IMG/VR virus record: IMGVR_UViG_2660238349_000014
Length of the DNA stretch: 35,039 bases
Reading direction: 5' to 3' (one strand)
From: a virus
Taxonomy: Duplodnaviria > Heunggongvirae > Uroviricota > Caudoviricetes
Each line of letters begins with the position of its first letter. The stretch's first letter is position 1. Below the pieces are notes generated by a model, which saw only the letters and a list, made by a program, of their open reading frames with translations, searched no databases and was not told the origin of the DNA. This document shows positions 1 to 10,858 of the stretch, in pieces. The position numbers were made by a program, and so were the translations under genes.

Positions 1-54
1 GAAAAATATCCTCTTTGTTTTGTTAAAAATACATAGCTGGTATAGGTGGGAGTT

Positions 55-80
55 AAGACGAAAACGTTGGTTTGGGGGAA
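55..80. other. invertase crossover site, hix/gix-like, opposite orientation to the site in the expressed fibre gene
   Basis: Reverse complement is TTCCCCCAAACCAACGTTTTCGTCTT, fitting the two half-sites-plus-central-AA layout of Hin/Gin/Cin/Pin sites as recalled from memory. Lies at the 5' end of cassette 1. Confidence 0.6.
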
Positions 81-539
81 GGCTCNGCGCTGCCCGTTGG
101 TGTGCCTGTTCCGTGGCCCTCAGCCACACCACCAACGGGCTGGCTGAAATGTAACGGTGCAGCATTTTCTTCTGAAATGTATCCCAAACTGGCAAAAGCT
201 TACCCCACCAATAAATTACCGGATTTACGGGGTGAATTTATTCGTGGCTGGGATGATGGGCGGGGAATTGATAATAGACGCAACCTACTGTCTGCACAGT
301 CTGACACTATTCAGAATATAGTTGGCACTTTTGGACGAACTCAGCTTTTTAAAGATGCTTTAAATTCAGGGCCATTTAGTCAAACTGACTCTATATTATC
401 AGTAGGCTTGCAACCAACTGAGAATATTGAAGGATATGGCGCCTCTGTATGGACATTCGACGCCTCTCGCTCAGTTCGCACAGCATCTGAAACACGTCCT
501 CGTAACATTGCGTTTAATTACATCGTAAGGGCGGCATAG
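72..539 (+). other. silent tail-fibre C-terminal cassette 1
   Basis: ORF opens with TTG inside the crossover site, not a real start. N-terminal ~65 aa (GEGSALPVGVPVPWPSATPPTGWLKCNGAAFSSEMYP...GRGID) nearly identical to the C-terminal part of the expressed fibre gene at 2636..3559. Variable middle, conserved end RPRNIAFNYIVRAA. Confidence 0.75.
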
Positions 540-558
540 AAACGTTGGTTTGGGGGAA
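533..558. other. invertase crossover site, hybrid of cassette 1 end and cassette 2 start
   Basis: Reverse complement TTCCCCCAAACCAACGTTTCTATGCC, identical to the sites at 1005..1030 and 2617..2642. Overlaps the cassette 1 stop codon. Confidence 0.6.
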
Positions 559-1011
559 GGCTCTGCACTACCTGTTGGTGTGCCTGTTCCATGGCCGTCA
601 GCCACACCGCCAACAGGGTGGCTGAAATGTAACGGTGCAGCATTTTCTTCTGAAATGTACCCCAATCTGGCAAAGGCTTACCCCACGAATAAATTACCGG
701 ATTTACGGGGCGAATTTATCCGTGGCTGGGATGACGGACGAGGTATTGATGCAGGACGAGAGATACTTTCATTTCAGGAAGGCACTATCGTCTCCGGTTT
801 TGATGATAATGATACTGGGGATATCAGTTCACTTAGCTCAACACAATACGGATTTGGTGACACTCTAACCTCTAATCAATGGGGGGCCATAAATGGCAAA
901 AAGTGGATATTTGATGCATCCAGTAAAGGTGCACAAAAATATGACTGGTGGGCTTATGTATCAGCTCGTCCGCGTAATATTGCATTTAATTACATCGTAA
1001 GAGCGGCATAG
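550..1011 (+). other. silent tail-fibre C-terminal cassette 2
   Basis: Same conserved N-terminal ~65 aa and C-terminal RPRNIAFNYIVRAA as the other cassettes, with a different central segment. TTG at the 5' end, no independent start. Confidence 0.75.
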
Positions 1012-1030
1012 AAACGTTGGTTTGGGGGAA
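1005..1030. other. invertase crossover site
   Basis: Identical 26-mer to 533..558, sitting at the cassette 2 / cassette 3 junction. Confidence 0.6.
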
Positions 1031-1498
1031 GGCTCTGCACTGCCCGTTGGTGTGCCTGTTCCGTGGCCCTCAGCCACACCGCCAACAGGGTGGCTGAAAT
1101 GTAACGGTGCAGCATTTTCTTCTGAAATGTACCCCAAACTGGCAAAGGCTTACCCCACCAATAAATTACCGGATTTACGGGGCGAGTTTATTCGTGGCTG
1201 GGATGACGGGCGAGGGATTGATGCAGGACGTGCTTTATTAAGCTTTCAAACTGGGATGCTGGAAAAACACCGCCATATTGTTGTAGCTAACGATGGGTAT
1301 GACACAAAGGATGAATGGGAGTTGGCCACAATTTTCAAAAAAACATATACACAAGGACGGGGACTTGATGCCACAAGTACAGGCGGGAGTCTGATCCCAT
1401 CACCGACACTTCATTCACGAGGGAGTATTGGTAACACTGGTGGTAGTGAAACTCGCCCCCGCAATATCGCATTTAACTATATCGTGAGGGCGGCTTAA
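1022..1498 (+). other. silent tail-fibre C-terminal cassette 3
   Basis: Conserved N- and C-terminal ends as in the other cassettes with a unique middle. Ends 6 bp from the convergent tail-fibre assembly gene. Confidence 0.75.
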
Positions 1499-1504
1499 TT
1501 ATAC

Positions 1505-2122
1505 TCAACTGGCTGCTGCCAGAGGCATTTCCGGCCAGTTGATATCCGGTGCAGTGCTGATGTCAGTCGCATTAAGCGTATCTATGAAATCAAGCACGGC
1601 GTTTAGTTTTTCCGTCTCCTGGGGCGTCAATCGGCGTCCGGCTCGTAGTTTGAGATTAATAAGCTCAACAGATGCCATTGCCTGTTCCTCAAGTTGCTGA
1701 CGATGCGCTCCGGCAGCTTCCAGTTCTGCTGCGTGCTGTCGTCTCGTATCTGTCACCCAAATCTCACCATCCCAGACATCATAGATAGTAGCTGGCTGTT
1801 TCACCGTCGTATCAGGAGGGTAATCTCCCGGTTGTGTGATTTGCACAGCGTTACCATTCTCTGTGCTGTAAACCGTTTCGCCTCTGTGGTCTGGAACATA
1901 TTTCCAGATGTTCTGGTCGGTATCACGACAGACAGCGAAGCCGGGGCGTTTTTCTGGTGGCGCGTCAATGCATGAGTGAGCCGGAATTCCAACACCATAA
2001 GCGAGATACTCAACAGTGGCAGAGAGATATTCACGGTTTTCAGCATCGTAGTTATAAACGGTAATATCGCCTGCAGTTATAGCGATACCATTCTGATCAA
2101 GTACTGCAGCAGCATTATTCAT
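1505..2122 (-). CDS. tail fibre assembly protein (Tfa / Mu U / P2 G-like)
   Basis: 205 aa. C-terminal segment LTPQETEKLNAVLDFIDTLNATDISTAPDINWPE resembles the conserved Tfa C-terminus. Start codon overlaps the stop of the upstream cassette at 2122. Confidence 0.75.
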   Translation of the reverse strand: MNNAAAVLDQNGIAITAGDITVYNYDAENREYLSATVEYLAYGVGIPAHSCIDAPPEKRPGFAVCRDTDQNIWKYVPDHRGETVYSTENGNAVQITQPGDYPPDTTVKQPATIYDVWDGEIWVTDTRRQHAAELEAAGAHRQQLEEQAMASVELINLKLRAGRRLTPQETEKLNAVLDFIDTLNATDISTAPDINWPEMPLAAAS

Positions 2123-2625
2123 TAAGTAGCCCTTACAATATAGTTAAACGCAATATTACGGGGGCGGTTTTCCGTTCCTGTATTCCCTCCGTTGGCACCT
2201 AATCTATAAACACCACGAGTGCCAATAGCACGTAGTGAAGATGGAACTTTTACACCTGACTCATCTGTTTTAACAATCCCGCCATCACCGTATGTAGCCA
2301 GTATACCAGGGTTTGTTCCTGCACGGGTGTTGTTTGCGGCAAGCCCTTCACCAGTCCATAACTCCATATAATGAATATGATCTATAACCGAATGTGATTG
2401 TGCATTAAGCAAGGAACGCCCTGAATCAATTCCCCGCCCATCATCCCAGCCACGAATAAACTCACCCCGTAAATCCGGTAATTTATTGGTGGGGTAAGCC
2501 TTTGCCAGTTTGGGGTACATTTCAGAAGAAAATGCTGCGCCGTTACATTTCAGCCACCCTGTTGGCGGTGTGGCTGAGGGCCACGGAACAGGCACACCAA
2601 CGGGTAGTGCAGAGCCTTCCCCCAA
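2122..2625 (-). other. silent tail-fibre C-terminal cassette 4, directly upstream of tfa
   Basis: Same conserved N-terminal ~65 aa, ends RPRNIAFNYIVRAT. TTG at the 5' end. Lies just downstream of the stop of the expressed fibre gene, same strand. Confidence 0.7.
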
Positions 2626-2642
2626 ACCAACGTTTCTATGCC
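2617..2642. other. invertase crossover site, same orientation as the site at 3059
   Basis: Plus strand reads TTCCCCCAAACCAACGTTTCTATGCC. Overlaps the stop of the expressed fibre gene and the start of cassette 4. Confidence 0.6.
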
Positions 2643-3559
2643 GCTCTTACGATGTAATTAAATGTAATGTTACGGGGACGGGTTTCTGAACCACCAGGTG
2701 CACTGGTTTCTATAGTGCCTAAATTTATTCTCGAACCGTTTGTATCCGCCCCGACAATGTACGGTCCACCAGTTCCATCTGGTCCATTTGCACCCCATAT
2801 TTCACGGAAGTAATGACTGTGCGATTTAAACATATCGCCCTGTAACGAAAGTAGAGTGCGTCCTGAATCAATTCCCCGCCCGTCATCCCAGCCGCGAATA
2901 AATTCACCCCGTAAATCCGGTAATTTATTTGTAGGATAAGCCTTTGCCAGATTGGGGTACATTTCAGAAGAAAATGCTGCGCCGTTACATTTCAGCCACC
3001 CTGCTGGCGGTGTGGCTGAGGGCCACGGAACGGGCACACCAACGGGCAGCGCTGAGCCTTCCCCCAAACCAAGGTTTTTGACAAACAGCGCAGGCTCAGG
3101 AATATCTGCGCCGTTCTGGTCTTTAGCCAGCTTTTCCGCCAGCTTGTTCAGTACCGTAGTCGCAAAGTTTGGATCATTACCGAGAGCGTCAGCCAGCTCT
3201 TTAAGCGTATCCAGTGTCTCAGGGGCGCTGCCTGCAAGTGCCGCAAGTGCTTTGGCCACAAACTCCGTCGTCGCCAGCTTTTTGCTGTTATCACCATTTG
3301 CAGGTGTAGGTGCTGTTGGTGTGCCGGTGAATGTCGGACTGGCTTTCGTCGCGTACTGGGTATGCGGGTCAACTGCCGCGATATGTGCAGCCAGGTCTGT
3401 TCCGCTTTTTTCGACCTTCTGTTTGAGGTATGACGTTCGGCTGGCCAGTTGTTTAGCCTGGCGGTTAGAAATTCCGTCAGGTCCGCCCAGAACGGGGTCA
3501 GAGACCTCAATCTGGTATATGCCGCTTTCCCACTGCGGGGTTTCGGGTAGATTTGCCAT
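2636..3559 (-). CDS. tail fibre protein, currently expressed variant (constant N-terminus fused to cassette 5)
   Basis: 307 aa. N-terminal part carries a P2 gpH-like collar motif (TEFVAKALAALAGSAPETLDTLKELADALGNDPNFATT). C-terminal part from ...NLGLGEGSALPVG onward matches the cassette family. First gene-sized ORF after the baseplate genes. Confidence 0.8.
   Translation of the reverse strand: MANLPETPQWESGIYQIEVSDPVLGGPDGISNRQAKQLASRTSYLKQKVEKSGTDLAAHIAAVDPHTQYATKASPTFTGTPTAPTPANGDNSKKLATTEFVAKALAALAGSAPETLDTLKELADALGNDPNFATTVLNKLAEKLAKDQNGADIPEPALFVKNLGLGEGSALPVGVPVPWPSATPPAGWLKCNGAAFSSEMYPNLAKAYPTNKLPDLRGEFIRGWDDGRGIDSGRTLLSLQGDMFKSHSHYFREIWGANGPDGTGGPYIVGADTNGSRINLGTIETSAPGGSETRPRNITFNYIVRAA
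3059..3084. other. invertase crossover site at the constant/variable junction of the tail fibre gene
   Basis: Plus strand TTCCCCCAAACCAAGGTTTTTGACAA. As recalled, close to Salmonella hixL (TTCTTGAAAACCAAGGTTTTTGATAA). Encodes the GLGEG junction. Confidence 0.7.
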
Positions 3560-3561
3560 AA

Positions 3562-4140
3562 TTAACTGCTCCCGTGGTTGTAACTACCGTCATAACGGGT
3601 AGTACTGTTGTATCGAATGGCGACAGACTGATATTCCAGACTTGCCAGATGACAGCGAGCCGGAGCAAAGGCAGCAAGCGTCTGACGTAACAGCGCCGCC
3701 TGATCGTTAGTGATGGGTTGTTGAAGGATGACGCGATAGACTGCCCAGGCTTGTGCATCACCATGGACGAAAAGCCCGTTGTACGTGTGTCTGCCGTCAT
3801 AGCCAATCTGCCCCGTACCTTCAATCAGATCCACTTCGCCGAAGCCAAAACGGCGGATAATTTCCCGGATTGACCACGGTGTTCCTTTATAGCGGTGTAG
3901 CTCGATAGCGGATTTGATAAGCATGCGGCGTACATCGTCCGATTCCGCCAGTTCCCAGCCATCGCCGAACAGCGAGAACTGCTCGCCAAGCCATGGCAGC
4001 GCGGAACTGTCGACAATATCGACGAGACCGACCATCAGTACGCTCAGGTCGATGTTATCCAGCCGTCCGGCCAGTCTTCCCAGCGTTCTGAGACTGATAT
4101 CACCCTCAAGCGGTGGCGGGAGTTGTAGCACCTCAGCCAT
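3562..4140 (-). CDS. baseplate protein (P2 gpI / Mu gp48-like)
   Basis: 192 aa. Position between the baseplate J-like gene and the tail fibre. Family assignment by synteny plus general resemblance. Confidence 0.55.
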   Translation of the reverse strand: MAEVLQLPPPLEGDISLRTLGRLAGRLDNIDLSVLMVGLVDIVDSSALPWLGEQFSLFGDGWELAESDDVRRMLIKSAIELHRYKGTPWSIREIIRRFGFGEVDLIEGTGQIGYDGRHTYNGLFVHGDAQAWAVYRVILQQPITNDQAALLRQTLAAFAPARCHLASLEYQSVAIRYNSTTRYDGSYNHGSS

Positions 4141-5236
4141 CGGACACCCCGGTCATGTTAAGAGTGATCGCCGTACAGTTTGCCCATTCGTTTTCTGCCA
4201 CCACCCTCAGTGCCGGTGTCACCAGTTCGACCTGGTACACCCCGGAAACGGACAACACGCTGATAATCTGGCTGGGAACAATATCGCGCCCCAGCGTGGC
4301 GGTACGGGATGCCACCCAGTTCTGTATGGCGCTGTTAGCGTTGTCCTTTACCAACCTTGCATCCTGATCACGATAGATCGTAATCCTGGCTTCAATGGTG
4401 TAATCCACCTGAACAGGTGTTTTAGCCCGCACGGTATCAGTGAGTGGTCTGACTTTTTCGTCAGAACAGAAACTCTCTACCAGAGTGAGGATACTGCTGT
4501 CCGGCAGACCAGTGCTGAGCAGCGGATACAGCTCGACAGTGCCGGGAGCGGGAGAAAGAACAGCAACGTCGACAATGCCGGGATGCGCCCCCATAGCATG
4601 AAAACGGTATGCACCACGGCTTCCGGCATTGGTGAATGACTCCGGGGCCAGCCTGATACGCTCCCGGAGCCGGTCATCGTCTTCCTGCTCTGAACCGCCA
4701 GAGCTGGCCGTCAGATTGGTCACCAGCAGGTCAATGTTATCAATCTCATCGAGTAACTGACTGACCTGCGCCGGTTGCCAGCCGTTGCCAGCGGTACCCG
4801 GCTCGGTACAGGTGGCCGTGACATTGACCAGCAGCAATCCGGCCTTCAGCACCACATCTGTATCGGTGGCAAAAATAATACTGTCGGAAGCGCTGACGCG
4901 GGTGCCTGCCGGGATCAGCACATCAATGGCCAGTGCCTCATCCACAGAGAACTGAAGTGTGGTGGTGGCAGGCTGCGCAGCAAGGCGGTATACACCGACC
5001 AGTTCACCGAGGTAATCAATCATCGGCTCACGGGAAAAAGCGACCAGATTCTGCTTCGCCGCCTCCTGTACTGCCACCCTGACCAGCATTTCGCGATAGG
5101 CCCACAGGTCAATCAGCAGACGTTCAGCCTGTGCCGGGTACAGCGTTTTTCCGGTATCCTCTTCATACTTCGCAATCATTTCTGCCGTGATTTTATCGGC
5201 ATCGCGTTCAATAAAATCGGGTTCTGTCAGCGCCAT
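4133..5236 (-). CDS. baseplate J-like protein (Mu gp47 / P2 gpJ-like)
   Basis: 367 aa. Overlapping start/stop coupling with neighbours, conserved position in a myovirus baseplate module. Confidence 0.6.
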   Translation of the reverse strand: MALTEPDFIERDADKITAEMIAKYEEDTGKTLYPAQAERLLIDLWAYREMLVRVAVQEAAKQNLVAFSREPMIDYLGELVGVYRLAAQPATTTLQFSVDEALAIDVLIPAGTRVSASDSIIFATDTDVVLKAGLLLVNVTATCTEPGTAGNGWQPAQVSQLLDEIDNIDLLVTNLTASSGGSEQEDDDRLRERIRLAPESFTNAGSRGAYRFHAMGAHPGIVDVAVLSPAPGTVELYPLLSTGLPDSSILTLVESFCSDEKVRPLTDTVRAKTPVQVDYTIEARITIYRDQDARLVKDNANSAIQNWVASRTATLGRDIVPSQIISVLSVSGVYQVELVTPALRVVAENEWANCTAITLNMTGVSDG

Positions 5237-5574
5237 AGCAGTTCCTGAGTACGGGGTTGTCCGTCTGAGCCTTTCCAGCTCACCCGGAGCGTAAGATGTT
5301 CGCCGTCGACGGCGGGTTTAACCGACATAAGCTGGCAGCGGGGTTCCCAGCGCCTGATGGCATCGACGGATTCGCGAACCACATGCGGAATGGCCCGGTC
5401 GACAGGCCAGTCGATATAAAGGTGCAGATTGCTGCCGAACTCCGGGCGATGCGGGTCGCTGCCGCGGGGAGTCCGCAGGATGATCTGGATGGACTGCCGG
5501 ATATCATCCAGCCCCCGGACGATTTCGCCGGGAGCCTGCAGAGCTGGTTGCCAGAATACTGAGGTCGTTTTCAT
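5227..5574 (-). CDS. baseplate wedge protein (GPW / gp25-like)
   Basis: 115 aa, size and position typical of the gpW/gp25 family. Confidence 0.6.
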   Translation of the reverse strand: MKTTSVFWQPALQAPGEIVRGLDDIRQSIQIILRTPRGSDPHRPEFGSNLHLYIDWPVDRAIPHVVRESVDAIRRWEPRCQLMSVKPAVDGEHLTLRVSWKGSDGQPRTQELLWR

Positions 5575-5630
5575 GGAGGCAGTATTGCCCCCGGGAAGTA
5601 AGCGCCGATATTAAAGGCGTTTAAGAAGGT

Positions 5631-6158
5631 TCAATGGGAATGGTGATTAGAGTTCTGACCATCAGCAAATATGTTACCCGTTGCATGGGCGCTTCCGTTG
5701 ATTTCCAGATCACCATTGAGTGTCGCGGGGCCGTTGATCGTGGTAACTCCCGTGAGGTCGAGGTTTTTCCCTTTGAGAGAGATATCAGCGGCAACCTCCA
5801 CCACGATACGCTCAATACCTCCTCTGACCGTCAGCGTATGGGTCGCGCGGTTATAACTGAACTCCGCGCCATCAGCGTATTTCGTACCCCGGACGTTTTT
5901 ATCACTGAACGGCGGTTTATCGACGTCTGAGTACACCGCGCCCAGAATAACACCATCCTCGCCGTTGGCATCGAGCAGCACCTCAACCTGCTCCCCCACG
6001 TCAGGGAGCCAGTAATCCTTGTTATCCTGGGTATTGCGCTGTAGCACGTTAAGCCAGTTTGTGCGCAGATTATCGCATTCAGGCAGACGAACGCGGGCCT
6101 GAACCCTGTCGGCATCAACGGCACTGACCGTACCGATCTGACGGGTGACACCAGTCAT
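5631..6158 (-). CDS. baseplate spike / assembly protein V-like
   Basis: 175 aa. N-terminal region typical of gpV-type spike proteins, position upstream of the gpW-like gene. Confidence 0.6.
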   Translation of the reverse strand: MTGVTRQIGTVSAVDADRVQARVRLPECDNLRTNWLNVLQRNTQDNKDYWLPDVGEQVEVLLDANGEDGVILGAVYSDVDKPPFSDKNVRGTKYADGAEFSYNRATHTLTVRGGIERIVVEVAADISLKGKNLDLTGVTTINGPATLNGDLEINGSAHATGNIFADGQNSNHHSH

Positions 6159-7309
6159 TTTTTCTTCTCCTTAATCACCGTCGATGTACTGCCATCCGGG
6201 TGATAAACCGTGAGTTTCTGAGTTTTTTGTTTTTTCCCTCTTGTGACTGGCCCCCGTGCCACTTCCAGCTCTGTGGTGTAGCCGCTGTTACGCTCAAACG
6301 CATGGCGGGCAGTGATTATCAGCCATGGACCGGATAACTGTCCAAAGCCCACCAGTTCAATTTTGTTGCCTGCTGTCAGTTGAGGCGTTCCCGTCAGCGT
6401 CAGGGAGCCGTTCTGCTGGTATTCGTTATGTCTGGCCAGTGCTGAATCCGCTTTAATCCGGGCACTGTCCGGGTCGCTGACGCGGCTGTTAACTTTAAGT
6501 GAGTCAGCGCTGGTAACCTTACCNCCTTTGAGCTTTTTGTCGCTTTCACGGGTACCACCATCAGCTTCGTAGACGATCAGTTTTTTACTGCTGCTTTTCT
6601 GGTGTTTTACCTTTGCAGATTTATAGACCCGGTTGATGGTGTCACGCAGGGAAAAGCNGGCCACATCCTGCGGTTTTAACTGCCTGACCGGCTCCTGACT
6701 GCGCAGTGTGGCCAGATGAGAAAAAATCANCTGGTCACTGACCACTTTCACTGCATAACCATACTCGCTGGCCAGCCGGCGCAGAAAACCCACGTCGGTT
6801 TCAGCATACTGGGTCACCCGGTCGATTCTGATGGACTCAATGCTGCCCACCAGTTTCAGCCGGTGCTTTCTGGCAATCCGCCCCGCAACAGCTGCCAGCG
6901 TGGTGTTCTCAAAACCACGGCTGGATTTAGTCCGCAGAGCACTGTTAACCGAGGTGGCCACCCCACGGATAGCGACAACGGACGCGGGCGAACTCACTTC
7001 GATCTCGTCTATTGAGAATGTACCGCAGGACAGCAGTTTCTCGCCCTGATAACCCATTTTCAGCGTCAGCGTGTCACCCTTGCCCGGATACCACTTATCC
7101 AGCCAGCGGCCATCGGTGTCGTCCAGCTCCACCTCAATGGTATCGGACTCATTTTTGATGTTATCGCTCCAGACCACACGGGTGACATAAGGCGCGATAT
7201 CAGAGGTGATGTTTTTCTGCAGATACCACAGAGTGAATACCGGCGTCAGCACATCGCTGACGCCGGTTAACGCTGATGTGGCTTGCGCAGTACTGTTTAT
7301 CTCAGCCAT
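6155..7309 (-). CDS. baseplate hub protein (P2 gpD / Mu P-like)
   Basis: 384 aa. Position between the X-like and V-like genes. Contains ambiguous codons (X). Confidence 0.55.
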   Translation of the reverse strand: MAEINSTAQATSALTGVSDVLTPVFTLWYLQKNITSDIAPYVTRVVWSDNIKNESDTIEVELDDTDGRWLDKWYPGKGDTLTLKMGYQGEKLLSCGTFSIDEIEVSSPASVVAIRGVATSVNSALRTKSSRGFENTTLAAVAGRIARKHRLKLVGSIESIRIDRVTQYAETDVGFLRRLASEYGYAVKVVSDQXIFSHLATLRSQEPVRQLKPQDVAXFSLRDTINRVYKSAKVKHQKSSSKKLIVYEADGGTRESDKKLKXGKVTSADSLKVNSRVSDPDSARIKADSALARHNEYQQNGSLTLTGTPQLTAGNKIELVGFGQLSGPWLIITARHAFERNSGYTTELEVARGPVTRGKKQKTQKLTVYHPDGSTSTVIKEKKK

Positions 7310-7512
7310 GGGGCAATATCCTCTTCTGTACGGGCATCTTCAGCCTCAATAACCGGGATCAGTAACAACAACCCGGAGGGCAGCACCGGCGTAATGGCCA
7401 CGTGCGGATTGGCTGCAATAATCCGGGGATAGCCCAGCGGGTCACCGTAGTACTGCCATGCCAGCGAATCCCAGCGCTCTCCGTCACGGGTAATATGTTC
7501 AAGAAACATCAC
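7297..7512 (-). CDS. tail protein X-like (LysM-like small tail protein)
   Basis: 71 aa with GERWDSLAWQYYGD...IIAANP, resembling the P2 gpX family. Confidence 0.55.
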   Translation of the reverse strand: MMFLEHITRDGERWDSLAWQYYGDPLGYPRIIAANPHVAITPVLPSGLLLLIPVIEAEDARTEEDIAPWLR

Positions 7513-8393
7513 ACACTCCTCGTCAGTATTCTGGCGGCCATTGCACTTAATCCCGGAGACATGCGGTTGAATGCTGTGCCGGCGGCGTTAAGCTGCCCGG
7601 AAACGGTATCCAGAGCACCTGCAATATTTCTTTTGTCCACACCACTCAGCGCCGACTGCGCCTGCTGTACATACGTGGCTGCCTCACTGGCTGTTCTGGC
7701 CAGACTGATGGCATCGGGCATGGATTCAGAGAGTGCATTAAACGCCGGAATACTTTTCCCCAGAGCGCCGGATATATTACCCAGTCCGCTCATCAGTCCC
7801 GGCACACGGGTCAGCGCGACAACGGGGTTACCCTTCATTTTCTGCGCCACCCGAACGGCACTGATAGTGGTCTGGAGTACAGACTGCGCCTGTTTCGCAT
7901 AGTTGACGCCGTTACGGACGAACTGCGCCACCCCGGAAGGCGATGGAACAGCACCCGATACAGCTCCGGCACCGGGAACCTGCCTGCGTATTGCCGGCGG
8001 TTGCAGAGGATTTTTCGGGTCACCGGTGTATTCCCGGAGAGACACGGTGGCACTGACAGCCAGCACGTTACCGGTGCTGTCTGTCTGCTCGCTGGTTGCG
8101 GTCACATCGGTAATCACGAACCAGCCGCGATAGTCACCGTTGCCGAAGACCAGCGCCAGTGCCTGATGGGCCTTCATGGCTGTTCGCACTCTCGCCAGCT
8201 CCACGTCGGGCACACAATAATGCTGATGGAAGACCAGGCTTATCTGGATTTCGTCCAGCCTGTCGCCGACAAACTGCAGGCCGGGTTTACCCTCGATGCG
8301 GGCATGCTCCGCATAATCGACGCCAAACGTGGCCTCGAAGCCGTCCCAGTAGGTAATCAGTTCAAACTCAATATCACCCAGTACGGCAAACAT
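7509..8393 (-). CDS. DNA circularisation protein N-like (Mu gp43-like)
   Basis: 294 aa, immediately downstream of the tape measure gene as in Mu-like tail modules. Confidence 0.5.
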   Translation of the reverse strand: MFAVLGDIEFELITYWDGFEATFGVDYAEHARIEGKPGLQFVGDRLDEIQISLVFHQHYCVPDVELARVRTAMKAHQALALVFGNGDYRGWFVITDVTATSEQTDSTGNVLAVSATVSLREYTGDPKNPLQPPAIRRQVPGAGAVSGAVPSPSGVAQFVRNGVNYAKQAQSVLQTTISAVRVAQKMKGNPVVALTRVPGLMSGLGNISGALGKSIPAFNALSESMPDAISLARTASEAATYVQQAQSALSGVDKRNIAGALDTVSGQLNAAGTAFNRMSPGLSAMAARILTRSV

Positions 8394-10858
8394 CAGCTGT
8401 ACTCCTTACGTTGTTTCTGAGCCAGCAGACGCTCCAGCATTTTTTCCAGCTCATGCAGGCTCATATTCAGGGCACCAGCCAGCCCGGCAGGCGCTGCGGT
8501 TTCCTTACCATTGAGGAAAAACTGAGGATTAAAGCTGACCTGGATACCGCCAGACGCTCCACCGCCGGTTGCAGTTGCGCCACGGCCTGAATATCCGGCA
8601 GCCATGATTTCCGGCGACGGGATACGGGGAACATCCGGTGTCATTTCAGCGGCCAGGCGCTGCCCGGCCAGTGCAGCAAGCGGAGTGGTCCGTTGCAGGC
8701 CAATGGCGGCACCCTGCGCGATATTGTCACCAAAGCCTATAAACACGCGACTCGGTGAATGGATGCCCAGCTTTTCGCTGAACCAGTCACTGATGCTGTC
8801 ACCCATTCCGGTTATGCTGGTTTTCAGTGACTCCCATTTGTTTCTGATGCCATTTATCAGCCCGTCGATAAGATGACCACCGAAGTCGGTGAACTTCGCC
8901 GGCAAATCAACGCCGAGATATTTCAGCGCAGCCGCAAAGGCTTTATAAAGCAGACCCGCCGGAGACCAGTTAACCAGCAGTTTACCAATTCCCGCGATGC
9001 CGCCGTTAAAGGCTTCCTGAATGTCAGCCCAGCGCTGTTTAAACCAGCTACTGACTGCGCCCCAGTTGCGGTAGATAAGGTAAGCTGCTGCCGCGACGGC
9101 GGTGATAGCGAGACCGATGGGATTCATCATCAGCGCCCGGCCAATCCAGAGAAGGGCACGTGCAGCAATCATAAAACCGCGAACGAGGCTGCCCGCCAGA
9201 ACTTTGCTGAGTTTCAGTCCTCCGCTGGCCAGCCGGCTGAATCCAGTGACAAGCCAGCGTAATTTGCCACCTTCTCCGAGTGCGGTAGTCAGTCGACGCC
9301 AGTTGGTCCGCAGTAAAACAGCATTTTTCCAGACGCTTACAAAGGGGGAAATAAGGAGATTCAGCCCAAGCTTGAGACCGATAGTGGCCATCCTGAAAGC
9401 GAGTAATGCGCCCACAACCTTTATGGTGCTGCTGACGAGCTGCGGATTTGCCGCTATCCATTTGCCGACGCTGTCCATTAAAGGAATAAATGTTTCACCC
9501 AACTGGAGCAAAGCCGGACGCAAGGATTGCCCGATGCTGATAGCAGAATCATTAAAGCCGATCTGCATTCTGCGCCAGCGACCTTCAAGCGTATCATTCT
9601 GCTTTGCAGCATCCTTATCCAGGGTAGACATTGCAGCCGGAGCATTCATTTCCTGCTTACTGGAAAGGTATTTATCCCAGCCCTGTCGCATTGACAGTAA
9701 ATGGTTGACAGTCTGAATATCGGTAAAGACCTCAGCCAGACCAAATGACTCCATGAGTTTCTGCTGACCTTCCTGATCGCCTCTTGCTCCTGCAGCTTTC
9801 CATTGCTGCAAAAACGCTTTGCCTTTACTGTCGATAAAACGGTTGGCAATCATCAGTGAAGCTTCGTACTGCGAAAAACCCTGAGCGACGTAATTCTGCA
9901 TTGACCCCTGGTAATCCACCCCGGCTTTAGCATATTTCTGGATGGTATCTCCGCGGCCCATTGCTGCCAGCCAGTTGGACATATTGGTGACCGCTTCCTC
10001 TGCAGAGCCACTACCTTTACCGACCTCCAGACTGGCAACAATCTGGGTAATCGCATCTTTTCCATAAATGCCACGGGCAGCGAAGGCTTTAGCCATACCG
10101 GGTAATGCTTTTGCCATATCCTTCAGCTCAAATGACCCAAGTTTGGCTCCTGTTGCCGCAATACCAAATGCCTGTTCAAGTTCTTTCGCATCAGTGATTC
10201 TGAGTGCATCGCTGAAGGCATAAGTCATTTTGGCAAGGTCGGTCATATCGGCTTTGGTTGCTGTAGCGGTCTTTCCAAGCATCTCTGCAAACGTTGCTGC
10301 CCGTTCGGGGGCCATACCATCAGCAACTAATTGTCCGACTCCCCCTAACAGAGACTCCTGCAGTTGGTTAACCTTCAGCGAGGCCTGTCTGATAGCCAGG
10401 CCAATTGCACGTTCCTGTTTTGCATCCAGGTCTCCTGTGACACTGATATCCCGTAACTGTGATTCAAACGAGGCATATTGTTTAACCGAGGCCATGACCG
10501 GTGCGCCCAGCGTTCTGCCAATAGCATAGGTTTCTGCACCCTGACCATAGAGCGCCAGGCGGTTAGCCTTCAACGCATCACCGGTGGCTGATACTGCTGA
10601 CAGACGGCGCTGCTGACGTTCAATTTGCTCCATGGTGCGGCTTACCCGCAGCAACTCGCTGTTGAGATGCTGCATCCGGGAAGAACCCAGTTGACCATAA
10701 CGTTCTGTTGCCCGGGTTAAGGCATTCTGGCGTTCCTGCAGACGGCGGGAGGTATCACCAAGGGAATCAAGGGCGCGTCGGGTGCCACTGACGGCTGAGC
10801 GGAAGCTGCTCCCGACAATGCCGCCAATAATGACGCCGACTGAAAATTCACTGGCCAC
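8393..10858 (-). CDS. tail tape measure protein
   Basis: 821 aa, the longest ORF in the window. Alanine/glycine-rich and predicted helical, with hydrophobic segments. Lies between the chaperone and baseplate genes. Confidence 0.8.
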   Translation of the reverse strand: MASEFSVGVIIGGIVGSSFRSAVSGTRRALDSLGDTSRRLQERQNALTRATERYGQLGSSRMQHLNSELLRVSRTMEQIERQQRRLSAVSATGDALKANRLALYGQGAETYAIGRTLGAPVMASVKQYASFESQLRDISVTGDLDAKQERAIGLAIRQASLKVNQLQESLLGGVGQLVADGMAPERAATFAEMLGKTATATKADMTDLAKMTYAFSDALRITDAKELEQAFGIAATGAKLGSFELKDMAKALPGMAKAFAARGIYGKDAITQIVASLEVGKGSGSAEEAVTNMSNWLAAMGRGDTIQKYAKAGVDYQGSMQNYVAQGFSQYEASLMIANRFIDSKGKAFLQQWKAAGARGDQEGQQKLMESFGLAEVFTDIQTVNHLLSMRQGWDKYLSSKQEMNAPAAMSTLDKDAAKQNDTLEGRWRRMQIGFNDSAISIGQSLRPALLQLGETFIPLMDSVGKWIAANPQLVSSTIKVVGALLAFRMATIGLKLGLNLLISPFVSVWKNAVLLRTNWRRLTTALGEGGKLRWLVTGFSRLASGGLKLSKVLAGSLVRGFMIAARALLWIGRALMMNPIGLAITAVAAAAYLIYRNWGAVSSWFKQRWADIQEAFNGGIAGIGKLLVNWSPAGLLYKAFAAALKYLGVDLPAKFTDFGGHLIDGLINGIRNKWESLKTSITGMGDSISDWFSEKLGIHSPSRVFIGFGDNIAQGAAIGLQRTTPLAALAGQRLAAEMTPDVPRIPSPEIMAAGYSGRGATATGGGASGGIQVSFNPQFFLNGKETAAPAGLAGALNMSLHELEKMLERLLAQKQRKEYS

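Follow-up and report, generated by a model that had tools for sequence, protein, structure and literature searches.

The Tail-Fibre Locus

The DNA considered in this study is a stretch of 35,039 nucleotides (IMG/VR virus record IMGVR_UViG_2660238349_000014), which I will call the window. It is a BcepMu-like (Mu-like, transposable) prophage of E. coli. Bases 10040–35039 show a 95% match to Escherichia phage PhiKM (Bcepmuvirus) and an 86% match to Klebsiella phage KP12, and the late genes run on the minus strand. The subject of this report is bases 1–3559, which very probably make up the distal portion of the operon for the tail fibre, organised as a multiple DNA-inversion switch of the Min/Gin type: five alternative fibre tips, five crossover sites, and one tail-fibre assembly gene (tfa).

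I will refer to the alternative 3' ends of the fibre gene as cassettes V1 to V5 and to the crossover sites as s0 (the master site) to s4. Cluster numbers refer to cassette types. The features of the locus are the following:

1–54, minus strand: 5' leader of the invertase gene, with its Shine-Dalgarno sequence (GAGGA); the ATG of the gene would lie immediately left of base 1
55–80, plus strand: invertase-proximal site s4, AAGACGAAAACG TT GGTTTGGGGGAA, core at 67–68; outer half non-coding
69–539, plus strand: cassette V1, 156 amino acids, silent; Pfam Collar 5e-15; HxH motif absent; N at base 86; cluster 0
533–558, plus strand: site s3, GGCATAGAAACG TT GGTTTGGGGGAA, core at 545–546; outer half made of the end of V1, its stop codon, and 5 nt
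547–1011, plus strand: cassette V2, 154 amino acids, silent; Pfam Collar 7.6e-15; HxH motif absent; cluster 4
1005–1030, plus strand: site s2, GGCATAGAAACG TT GGTTTGGGGGAA, core at 1017–1018
1019–1498, plus strand: cassette V3, 159 amino acids, silent; Pfam Collar 4.5e-15; KHRH motif; cluster 2
1505–2122, minus strand: tfa, tail-fibre assembly protein of 205 amino acids; Pfam Caudo_TAP (PF02413) 8.7e-26, 91.1 bits against a cut-off of 22.1
2122–2628, minus strand: cassette V4, 168 amino acids, silent, in the same orientation as the fibre gene; Pfam Collar 4.7e-15; DHIH motif; cluster 5; linked to tfa
2617–2642, minus strand: site s1, GGCATAGAAACG TT GGTTTGGGGGAA, core at 2629–2630; a direct repeat with s0
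2636–3070, minus strand: cassette V5, 144 amino acids, fused to the constant part of the fibre gene and thus the expressed tip; Pfam Collar 1.1e-14 (residues 174–221); SHSH motif; ends in RPRNITFNYIVRAA
3059–3084, minus strand: master site s0, TTGTCAAAAACC TT GGTTTGGGGGAA, core at 3071–3072; within the fibre gene, between ...VKN and LGLGE
3073–3559, minus strand: constant N-terminal part of the fibre, about 163 amino acids, following the gpI-like and gpJ-like genes
3559–2636, minus strand: the tail-fibre gene as a whole, 307 amino acids (constant part plus V5), left of the gpI-like gene
3562–4140, minus strand: gpI-like baseplate gene
4133–5236, minus strand: gpJ-like baseplate gene

Crossover Sites and the Topology of the Array

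Between bases 55 and 3084 lie five 26-bp crossover sites of the Gin/Hin type, together with five intact cassettes for fibre tips and a single tfa. In the whole 35 kb there are five occurrences of the motif AAACSTTGGTTTGGGGGAA, every one in the array region, against a chance expectation of 0.01. Read along the cassette, each site consists of 12 + 2 + 12 nucleotides with a TT core in all five; three sites lie on the plus strand and two on the minus strand. The closest match to hix/gix-type sites among the five is s0. The outer halves of s1 to s4 are degenerate, with AAAC alone retained.

The earlier note on this DNA had proposed that recombination sites are built from coding sequence, and two observations bear this out. 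The outer half of s0 falls in constant coding sequence of the fibre gene (VKN), and GGCATAGAAACG, the outer half of s1, s2, and s3, comprises the last four coding bases of a cassette (GCA and the G that closes the codon before it), the stop codon TAG, and five spacer bases. The more specific proposal, in which the 3' end of every cassette doubles as the outer half of the site that follows, is correct for s1, s2, and s3 but not for the master site, where the outer half is constant coding sequence, nor for s4, where it is non-coding. The conservation of DNA that can be attributed to the sites is limited to GGCATAG plus AAACG, and it is found on V1, V2, and V5, each of which has a site behind it. 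V3 and V4 adjoin tfa with no site behind them and have different 3' ends. The range given in the note, 72–2642, leaves out V5 (2636–3070) and the master site (3059–3084).

Relative to s0, sites s2 to s4 are inverted and s1 is direct, and each heads a 3' cassette with neither a promoter nor a start codon of its own. The frame is intact from core to stop in all five cassettes. The reading of these as tandem alternative 3' ends of a fibre gene is upheld. The TTG starts with which the cassettes appear in the list of open reading frames are products of mechanical calling, TTG being the Leu codon in ...KNLGLGEGS. V3 is convergent with tfa, the two stop codons lying 6 nt apart.

Enumeration of the possible inversions gives 48 reachable states, expressing V1 to V5. 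Since each site links the head of one cassette with a tail and the outermost two sites are mutually inverted, all isomers share one form: single cassettes co-oriented with the fibre gene, followed by one double-headed segment (V4 and tfa on one side, V3 opposing them on the other), and after it single cassettes that point the other way. Of the 48 states, 24 have tfa in the orientation of the fibre gene; they include every state expressing V4, no state expressing V3, and six of 12 for each of V1, V2, and V5.

The mechanism I propose begins with a serine invertase resembling Gin, whose gene lies directly to the left of base 1 and which would carry out strand exchange between inverted sites, at their central TT. 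Such an inversion would join any of the cassettes in frame, as LGLGEGS, to the ...VKN of the constant part. The tfa gene, sitting in the sole convergent segment, would flip with it, and in the co-oriented states transcription of the late operon would continue into it. A scan of bases 1–3700 found no terminator-like hairpins, against 3.7 expected, and three promoter-like sites, against 4.6 expected, none of them upstream of tfa on its strand, in a scan blind to late promoters that depend on an activator of the Mu C type; it thus offers no evidence that tfa has an internal promoter. With neither a terminator-like hairpin nor an excess of promoters in this region, read-through into a co-oriented tfa is plausible, and I presume that tfa would then be co-transcribed with the late operon.

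A possible signal of the opposite sense lies in the invertase-proximal spacer. At 14–46 on the plus strand, TTGTTT...TGGTATAGG points into the array, and TGGTATAGG is invariant in six diverged arrays whose spacers differ elsewhere. It resembles an extended -10 element, without the conserved final T of the -10, and may represent a promoter directed inward or else belong to the promoter or operator of the invertase gene. I regard it as a weak lead and do not rely on it.

The Invertase

A tblastn search with the invertase of related prophages found no serine recombinase or invertase within the 35-kb window. The survey of related loci covered 80 IMG/VR loci, 80 loci taken from one genome per species, and loci of E. 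coli and of plasmids (numbered with L). Bases 1–70 of the window are identical in L003, L006, and L008, and there the ATG of a 190-amino-acid recombinase directly precedes them; the flank that L003 and L006–L008 share with the window is identical throughout. In E. coli 2014C-3075, DEF2, FEA3, and 3-72, the sequence identical to bases 1–70 has the ATG of such a recombinase directly before it. The window is thus cut at the boundary of the invertase gene, whose absence the earlier note does not mention. Inversion systems of the Gin/Hin family have a recombinational enhancer that depends on Fis, usually within the 5' portion of the invertase gene, a region that the window does not include. In the relatives, the 190-amino-acid protein matches Resolvase (1.7e-51) and HTH_7 (1.3e-13), as well as the Gin structures 3UJ3 and 4M6F at about 1e-90, and its gene is transcribed away from the array. 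E. coli JNEC-KY180 likewise encodes the Gin homologue of 190 amino acids next to its array.

The position of the gene outside the window weighs against the picture of a switch that works on this copy: that the invertase would act here is judged from identical relatives.

In the E. coli chromosomes that provided L003 and L170–L175, the BcepMu-like prophage occupies a different site in each strain, often disrupting a gene (ygjJ, wzz(fepE), a SWIM zinc-finger gene, a gene for a 4Fe-4S binding protein). This is the pattern expected of random transposition, and in all of these the invertase gene is the final gene of the prophage.

The Conserved Ends of the Cassettes

The cassettes were said in the earlier note to share about 200 bp of near-identical 5' sequence in both orientations. 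A repeat search agrees, finding repeats of 219–273 nt at 89–95% identity, both direct and inverted. Over the first 68 codons the mean identity of the DNA is 93.8%, with exact runs of 29–74 bp, and the differences comprise 114 synonymous and 10 non-synonymous codons. Over the last 14 codons the identity of the DNA is just 81.7%, with 64 synonymous and eight non-synonymous codon differences, so the 3' end is conserved as protein. At synonymous positions the 3' end is free to vary. The common ending itself, RPRNIAFNYIVRA(A/T), is found in four cassettes (V1–V4); V5 departs from it, ending in RPRNITFNYIVRAA (...NITF...).

The two ends can be understood as two parts of one collar domain, given the Pfam matches and the sequence alignments to proteins of known structure. 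All five cassettes score 54.5–55.8 bits against Collar (PF07484), for which the cut-off is 24. The C-terminus of the fibre aligns to the T4 gp37 tip 2XGF (2xgf_A, 1.7e-16) through both its conserved N-terminal portion (2XGF residues 26–104) and its terminal ...NIAFNYIVRLA, and it aligns over the whole module to the short tail fibre 9CUY (9cuy_c, 3.8e-19). The first 68 or so residues and the last 14 or so (RPRNIAFNYIVRA) would accordingly fold together into one collar domain of the T4 gp37/gp12 type, and the variable middle of 60–90 residues, unique to each cassette, would be the distal receptor-binding tip. The metal-binding HxH motif of gp37 and gp12, which marks the start of the needle, is present in V3, V4, and V5; V1 has SDTIQNI in its place and V2 has EGTIVSG. 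One result tells against this picture: an AlphaFold2 monomer of the V4 cassette, made with an alignment of the five window cassettes, was unusable, with a pLDDT (predicted local distance difference test) of 37.6 and a pTM (predicted template modelling score) of 0.22, and the assignment of the fold rests on sequence. The conservation of the ends is probably due mainly to the collar fold, and the function of the sites adds about 12 nt at three junctions only.

Natural Isomers of the Array

Whether the cassettes are exchanged, and where, can be seen by comparing strains. One and the same prophage, inserted next to yehR, is carried by E. coli DEF2, FEA3, and 3-72, and its four cassettes are arranged differently in each of the three. 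The bodies of the cassettes are 100% identical from core to stop at whatever place they occupy, while the 40 nt upstream alternate among four versions, so that the outer half-sites travel with the preceding cassette. The breakpoints in natural isomers lie between -1 and +22 relative to the core.

An isomer of the window itself is found in the complete genome of E. coli JNEC-KY180. Its V2, V3, V4 plus tfa, V5, constant part with 1.9 kb upstream, and 66-nt spacer on the invertase side are 100% identical to those of the window, and its V1 differs from that of the window only at the N (base 86). The order there is Sc-V2, V5, V1, V3, tfa + V4 inverted, invertase, a state three inversions from that of the window. 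Being identical unit by unit, this isomer shows that the array is real and that it is shuffled exactly at the cores. At a further IMG/VR locus (L009), these five cassettes and tfa recur at 98–99.8% identity with a different constant part, in the Sc-V3 state, from which it follows that the array moves between phage backbones as a module.

These comparisons bear on two other accounts of the array. One is that RecA-dependent homologous recombination between the 5' repeats of about 200 bp, rather than the invertase, rearranges the cassettes. The repeats do occur in both orientations, at identities of 89–97% and with exact runs of 29–74 bp, and the number of cassettes per locus, from two to at least 13, points to unequal crossing-over or duplication. 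However, exchange always falls at -1 to +22 around the core, the natural isomers contain no mosaic cassette bodies, a Gin homologue stands beside every array, and the sites fit the crossover consensus of the invertases. I consider this account very improbable as an explanation of switching; homologous recombination probably contributes to the gain and loss of cassettes. The note's suggestion that the repeats are a substrate for recombination and for the collapse of assemblies is therefore right as to their length, which suffices for both, and as to assembly, since the record of PhiKM breaks inside one, but the rearrangement itself is site-specific, at a 2-bp core.

The other account, that the tandem cassettes are an artefact of mis-joined or duplicated repeats, I find scarcely credible. 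The window does contain 61 ambiguous bases, one of them in V1, and assemblies do fail at such repeats: PhiKM is one example, and the spurious contigs of EC958 are another (PMC4134206). Against an artefact, every unit is 100% identical to the JNEC-KY180 chromosome save for the N at 86, the order of the units conforms to the topology of the system (a cassette head and a tail at every site, and a single convergent segment), and every cassette has a unique variable region. The complete genome of JNEC-KY180, which carries every unit, rules an artefact out.

The ambiguous base at 86 falls at a position that is variable among cassettes (T in V2–V4, A in V5), which suggests either the consensus of a mixed population or cross-mapping between repeats. 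The other 60 ambiguous bases lie between 6524 and 31962.

In the PhiKM record (L005, PQ738613; 20101–20760), the fibre gene ends 47 codons past the crossover site and then runs into DNA that resembles host sequence and is annotated as the permease of an Fe2+ ABC transporter; the record contains neither the cassette array nor tfa nor the invertase gene. The junction has the appearance of a break in the assembly at the repeat, or of host DNA packaged there.

The region sets the host range of the phage. Since it would exist as a mix of up to 48 isomers, the single order in an assembly is a snapshot. Repeats of this sort break or scramble short-read assemblies, and silent cassettes come to be annotated as "phage tail proteins".

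The tfa Gene and Its Distribution

A hidden Markov model scan of all open reading frames in the window gave one match to Caudo_TAP and no second tfa. Its ATG overlaps the stop codon of V4 (TAATG), and cassette 4 alone has tfa behind it, as had been claimed. The Shine-Dalgarno sequence of tfa, AAGGG, lies 7 nt upstream, inside the 3' end of V4, and arises from the rare Arg codon in the terminal ...IVRA of that cassette. A search of PDB sequences with Tfa gave no meaningful match, Mu TFA included.

The Arg of the terminal ...IVRA is always encoded by a rare codon, AGG or AGA (522–539, 994–1011, 1481–1498, 2122–2139, and 2636–2653). In the cassettes without tfa, this codon may be a relic of an ancestor that had tfa behind it.

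Most of the IMG/VR relatives have the layout of Mu: a collar cassette with a tfa of about 200 codons, facing a tfa' of about 146 codons with a non-collar cassette, followed by the invertase gene. Arrays of four to at least 13 collar cassettes are found mainly in Escherichia prophages and P1-like plasmids (L003–L019, L169–L175), and in those of E. coli they are common. Wherever the sequence reaches the convergent segment, the array has exactly one tfa, always in that segment. The layout with a single tfa is thus a general and under-discussed property of such arrays and not a peculiarity of the window. As a switch this is textbook material, and what is of some interest is how many chaperone genes there are per tip: a collar tip outside an array comes with a Tfa of its own, and in an array four to at least 13 tips have one tfa between them, a gene that flips.

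At 1020–8158 of the E. coli plasmid pMTY9975_untypable1 (L169, NZ_CP135665.1), which is a phage-plasmid of the P1-like kind, no fewer than 13 collar cassettes surround one tfa. Its cassettes are partly duplicated (three are V3-like), and the array extends past the fetched stretch.

The types of cassette differ in their association with tfa. Those of V2, V3, V5, and cluster 11 never have tfa directly behind them (0/10 for the V2 type, cluster 4; 0/14 for the V3 type, cluster 2), and the V3 type is convergent to tfa in 12 of 14 loci. The V4 type (cluster 5) has the Tfa lineage of the window behind it in eight of 10 loci; L017 and L018 are arrays in which it has no tfa behind it and the Tfa present is of another lineage. 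The ratio of non-synonymous to synonymous polymorphism (pN/pS) in the variable region is 0.12 for the V3 type (pS 0.31), 0.20 for the V2 type, and 0.30 for cluster 11, all without tfa, and 0.29 and 0.21 for types linked to tfa. Since the types without tfa are under purifying selection, Tfa is probably not an absolute requirement in cis.

At L028 (IMGVR_UViG_2916210561_000004, 6999–9134) there are two collar tips, each with its own Tfa (206 and 209 amino acids as stop-to-stop open reading frames). One of the tips is V3-like (cluster 33), which makes it probable that tips of the V3 type originally came with a tfa that has been lost in arrays.

The Tfas of the collar class form one family, about 60–90% identical over their full length, and share only the C-terminal 80 or so residues with the Tfas of non-collar tips. 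This fits a modular model in which a variable N-terminal domain binds the fibre and a conserved C-terminal domain trimerises (PMC9608196). Within the collar class, Tfas 93–98% identical to each other sit behind tips whose variable regions are 33–36% identical and 17 residues apart in length; Tfa there does not track the hypervariable tip.

How One Tfa May Serve Five Tips

The earlier note left a choice: either Tfa serves all variants, or expression states differ in the maturation of the fibre. I put the chances at about even that the Tfa of about 205 amino acids is a class-generic chaperone for collar tips and not one specific to V4, the breadth of its clients being judged from the comparison of sequences. 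A generic Tfa would need some supply, or some tolerance of its shortage, in the antisense states, and with that proviso I favour it, on what is close to an even call, over a Tfa dedicated to V4.

Several observations count against this reading. Throughout the Enterobacterales, nearly every collar cassette has its own Tfa of about 205 amino acids behind it, at loci without an invertase as well. Cassettes of the V1 type (cluster 0) have their own tfa in eight of 21 cases, all at two-cassette loci, and cassettes of cluster 3 also have their own at such loci. The Tfa lineage of the window (cluster 5) shares only about 60% identity with the other Tfas of the collar class, and within its own type of cassette its conservation is 99%, which would also fit a V4-specific partner. 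That most collar cassettes have their own Tfa argues that collar tips need one, which is awkward when half of the states have tfa in antisense.

On one alternative, Tfa would be the dedicated partner of V4, the other four short collar tips would trimerise unaided or with host or general chaperones, and a single tfa would cost nothing in any state. The general chaperone gp57A serves T4 gp12. The overlap TAATG couples translation of tfa to that of V4. Cassette types V2, V3, V5, and cluster 11 lack tfa behind them and are nonetheless under purifying selection; V3, in the central segment, is expressed only with tfa antisense; six of 16 independent arrays were assembled in the antisense state; and T4 gp12, a collar-tip fibre, needs no chaperone of the gp38 type (PMC3004832). 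The lineage of Tfa also co-varies with the upstream cassette (cluster 5 with 205 amino acids, cluster 9 with 203, cluster 20 with 204). Linkage with no intervening site, however, would produce such co-variation through hitch-hiking alone. Moreover, the V4 type is also found without a tfa behind it, in arrays where the sole Tfa belongs to another lineage, tips of the V1 type and of cluster 3 do have their own Tfa in two-cassette loci, collar cassettes and Tfas are paired nearly 1:1 in at least 60 species, and near-identical Tfas accompany very different tips. I consider a dedicated Tfa somewhat unlikely, though a serious competitor.

I looked to the co-variation of Tfa lineage and upstream cassette as proof of specificity and rejected it: the co-variation is real, but it is confounded by physical linkage.

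The second alternative is that all variants require Tfa, that it is made only when co-oriented, and that about half of the isomers release particles with defective fibres, so that the states differ in maturation. The 1:1 pairing outside arrays speaks for it, as do the want of a sigma-70-like promoter upstream of tfa on its strand or of any excess of promoters, and the direction of the invertase gene, which reads away from the array. But the V3 type persists at pS 0.31 and pN/pS 0.12 although in 12 of 14 loci its expression is possible solely with tfa antisense, and a loss of 50% of the burst should drive tfa out of invertible DNA, while the layout is conserved from four to at least 13 cassettes. 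Nor is there a bias towards co-orientation in natural loci: among 16 independent natural arrays, 10 are co-oriented and six antisense. That difference is not significant, and the tally is in consequence uninformative on selection against antisense states. Given that V3 is kept by selection and the layout is conserved, a Tfa required by all and made only when co-oriented fits poorly, and I judge it improbable.

A sharper proposition is that array cassettes without a tfa of their own give working fibres even when the sole tfa is antisense. I offer this tentatively, as somewhat less probable than its converse. It could come about in two ways. By the first, the Tfa of the collar class would be universal and expressed in both orientations, for example from an inward promoter in the 66-nt spacer at TGGTATAGG. 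By the second, minimal collar cassettes of about 450 bp would have become independent of a chaperone. Either, if true, would explain how arrays grow to at least 13 tips with one tfa, and would make the cassette a compact, portable receptor-binding module for the engineering of host range. Whether Tfa is generic, dispensable, or expressed on both sides bears directly on whether a cassette of some 450 bp can retarget a fibre by itself.

Comparison with Known Systems

The shufflon of R64 is driven by Rci, a tyrosine recombinase acting at 19-bp sfx sites. As in the window, several inversions choose among C-termini of a surface adhesin. I rejected membership in this class, since the recombinase adjacent to the array is a serine invertase and the sites are 26 bp long and of the hix/gix type.

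The tips resemble those of T4 gp37 (with gp38) and lambda Stf (with Tfa) in a collar predicted here to be built from N- and C-terminal parts of the module, in HxH (here in V3–V5), in the ending ...NIAFNYIVR, and in the gene for a specific chaperone directly downstream. The inserts here are 60–90 residues long, in contrast to the needle and head of about 150 residues in gp37, and V1 and V2 lack HxH. Lambda Tfa can substitute for gp38 (PMC9659904, PMC3004832).

The family likeness to the Gin/G segment of Mu (and to Cin of P1 and Pin of e14) extends to the invertase of the related prophages, which matches Gin at about 1e-90 and is encoded by the last gene of the prophage, and to the 12 + 2 + 12 form of the sites. 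A search of PDB sequences matches fibre residues 137–167, just before the crossover site, to the Mu fibre protein S (5yvq, 8ju3), and residues 144–174 of Mu S align just upstream of the site, whose position within the fibre gene thus agrees with that in Mu. The two variants of Mu, with two sites, are each paired with a separate tfa (S-U and S'-U'); the window has five sites, five variants, and one tfa.

Collar loci are known from other E. coli prophages. The prophages of EC958 have 26-bp crossover sites and invertible 3' regions encoding Collar (PF07484), with a chaperone gene downstream (PMC4134206), and a P2-like prophage of enteropathogenic E. coli (EPEC) has a four-variant shufflon of Collar 3' regions, again with a chaperone gene downstream (PMC4272514). 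Isomers at these loci were demonstrated experimentally by PacBio reads or by PCR (PMC4134206, PMC4272514). The inner half-site GGTTTGGGGGAA is identical to that published for EC958 prophage Phi2, which also shares the flanking repeat of about 200 bp (PMC4134206). These loci have two or three sites, as opposed to five here, and the ratio of tfa to cassettes is not discussed in either paper. In Enterobacter phage FR-phi, a gin-driven fibre shufflon chooses among at least three C-termini of the fibre and gives mixtures of isoforms in prophage and virion DNA, only one of which infects a given host (PMC13418256). FR-phi has three isoforms, is a lambdoid-type phage, and uses FhuA as its receptor, as against five tips on a BcepMu-like backbone here.

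A further parallel is the Min system of p15B and P1-like phage-plasmids, which likewise has several 26-bp sites, one constant 5' part, many 3' cassettes, and an adjacent serine invertase of the Pin/Gin family. Present-day P1-like plasmids carry homologous collar cassettes, at up to about 90% nucleotide identity, with one tfa. The Min system of p15B, known from Sandmeier et al. (cited in PMC4134206 and PMC6906374), is said to have six variants; the window differs in its BcepMu-like transposable backbone and its five variants, and pMTY9975 in having at least 13. Very probably, then, the array is a tail-fibre switch of the Min/Gin multiple-inversion type with collar-domain cassettes, and is explained by known biology.

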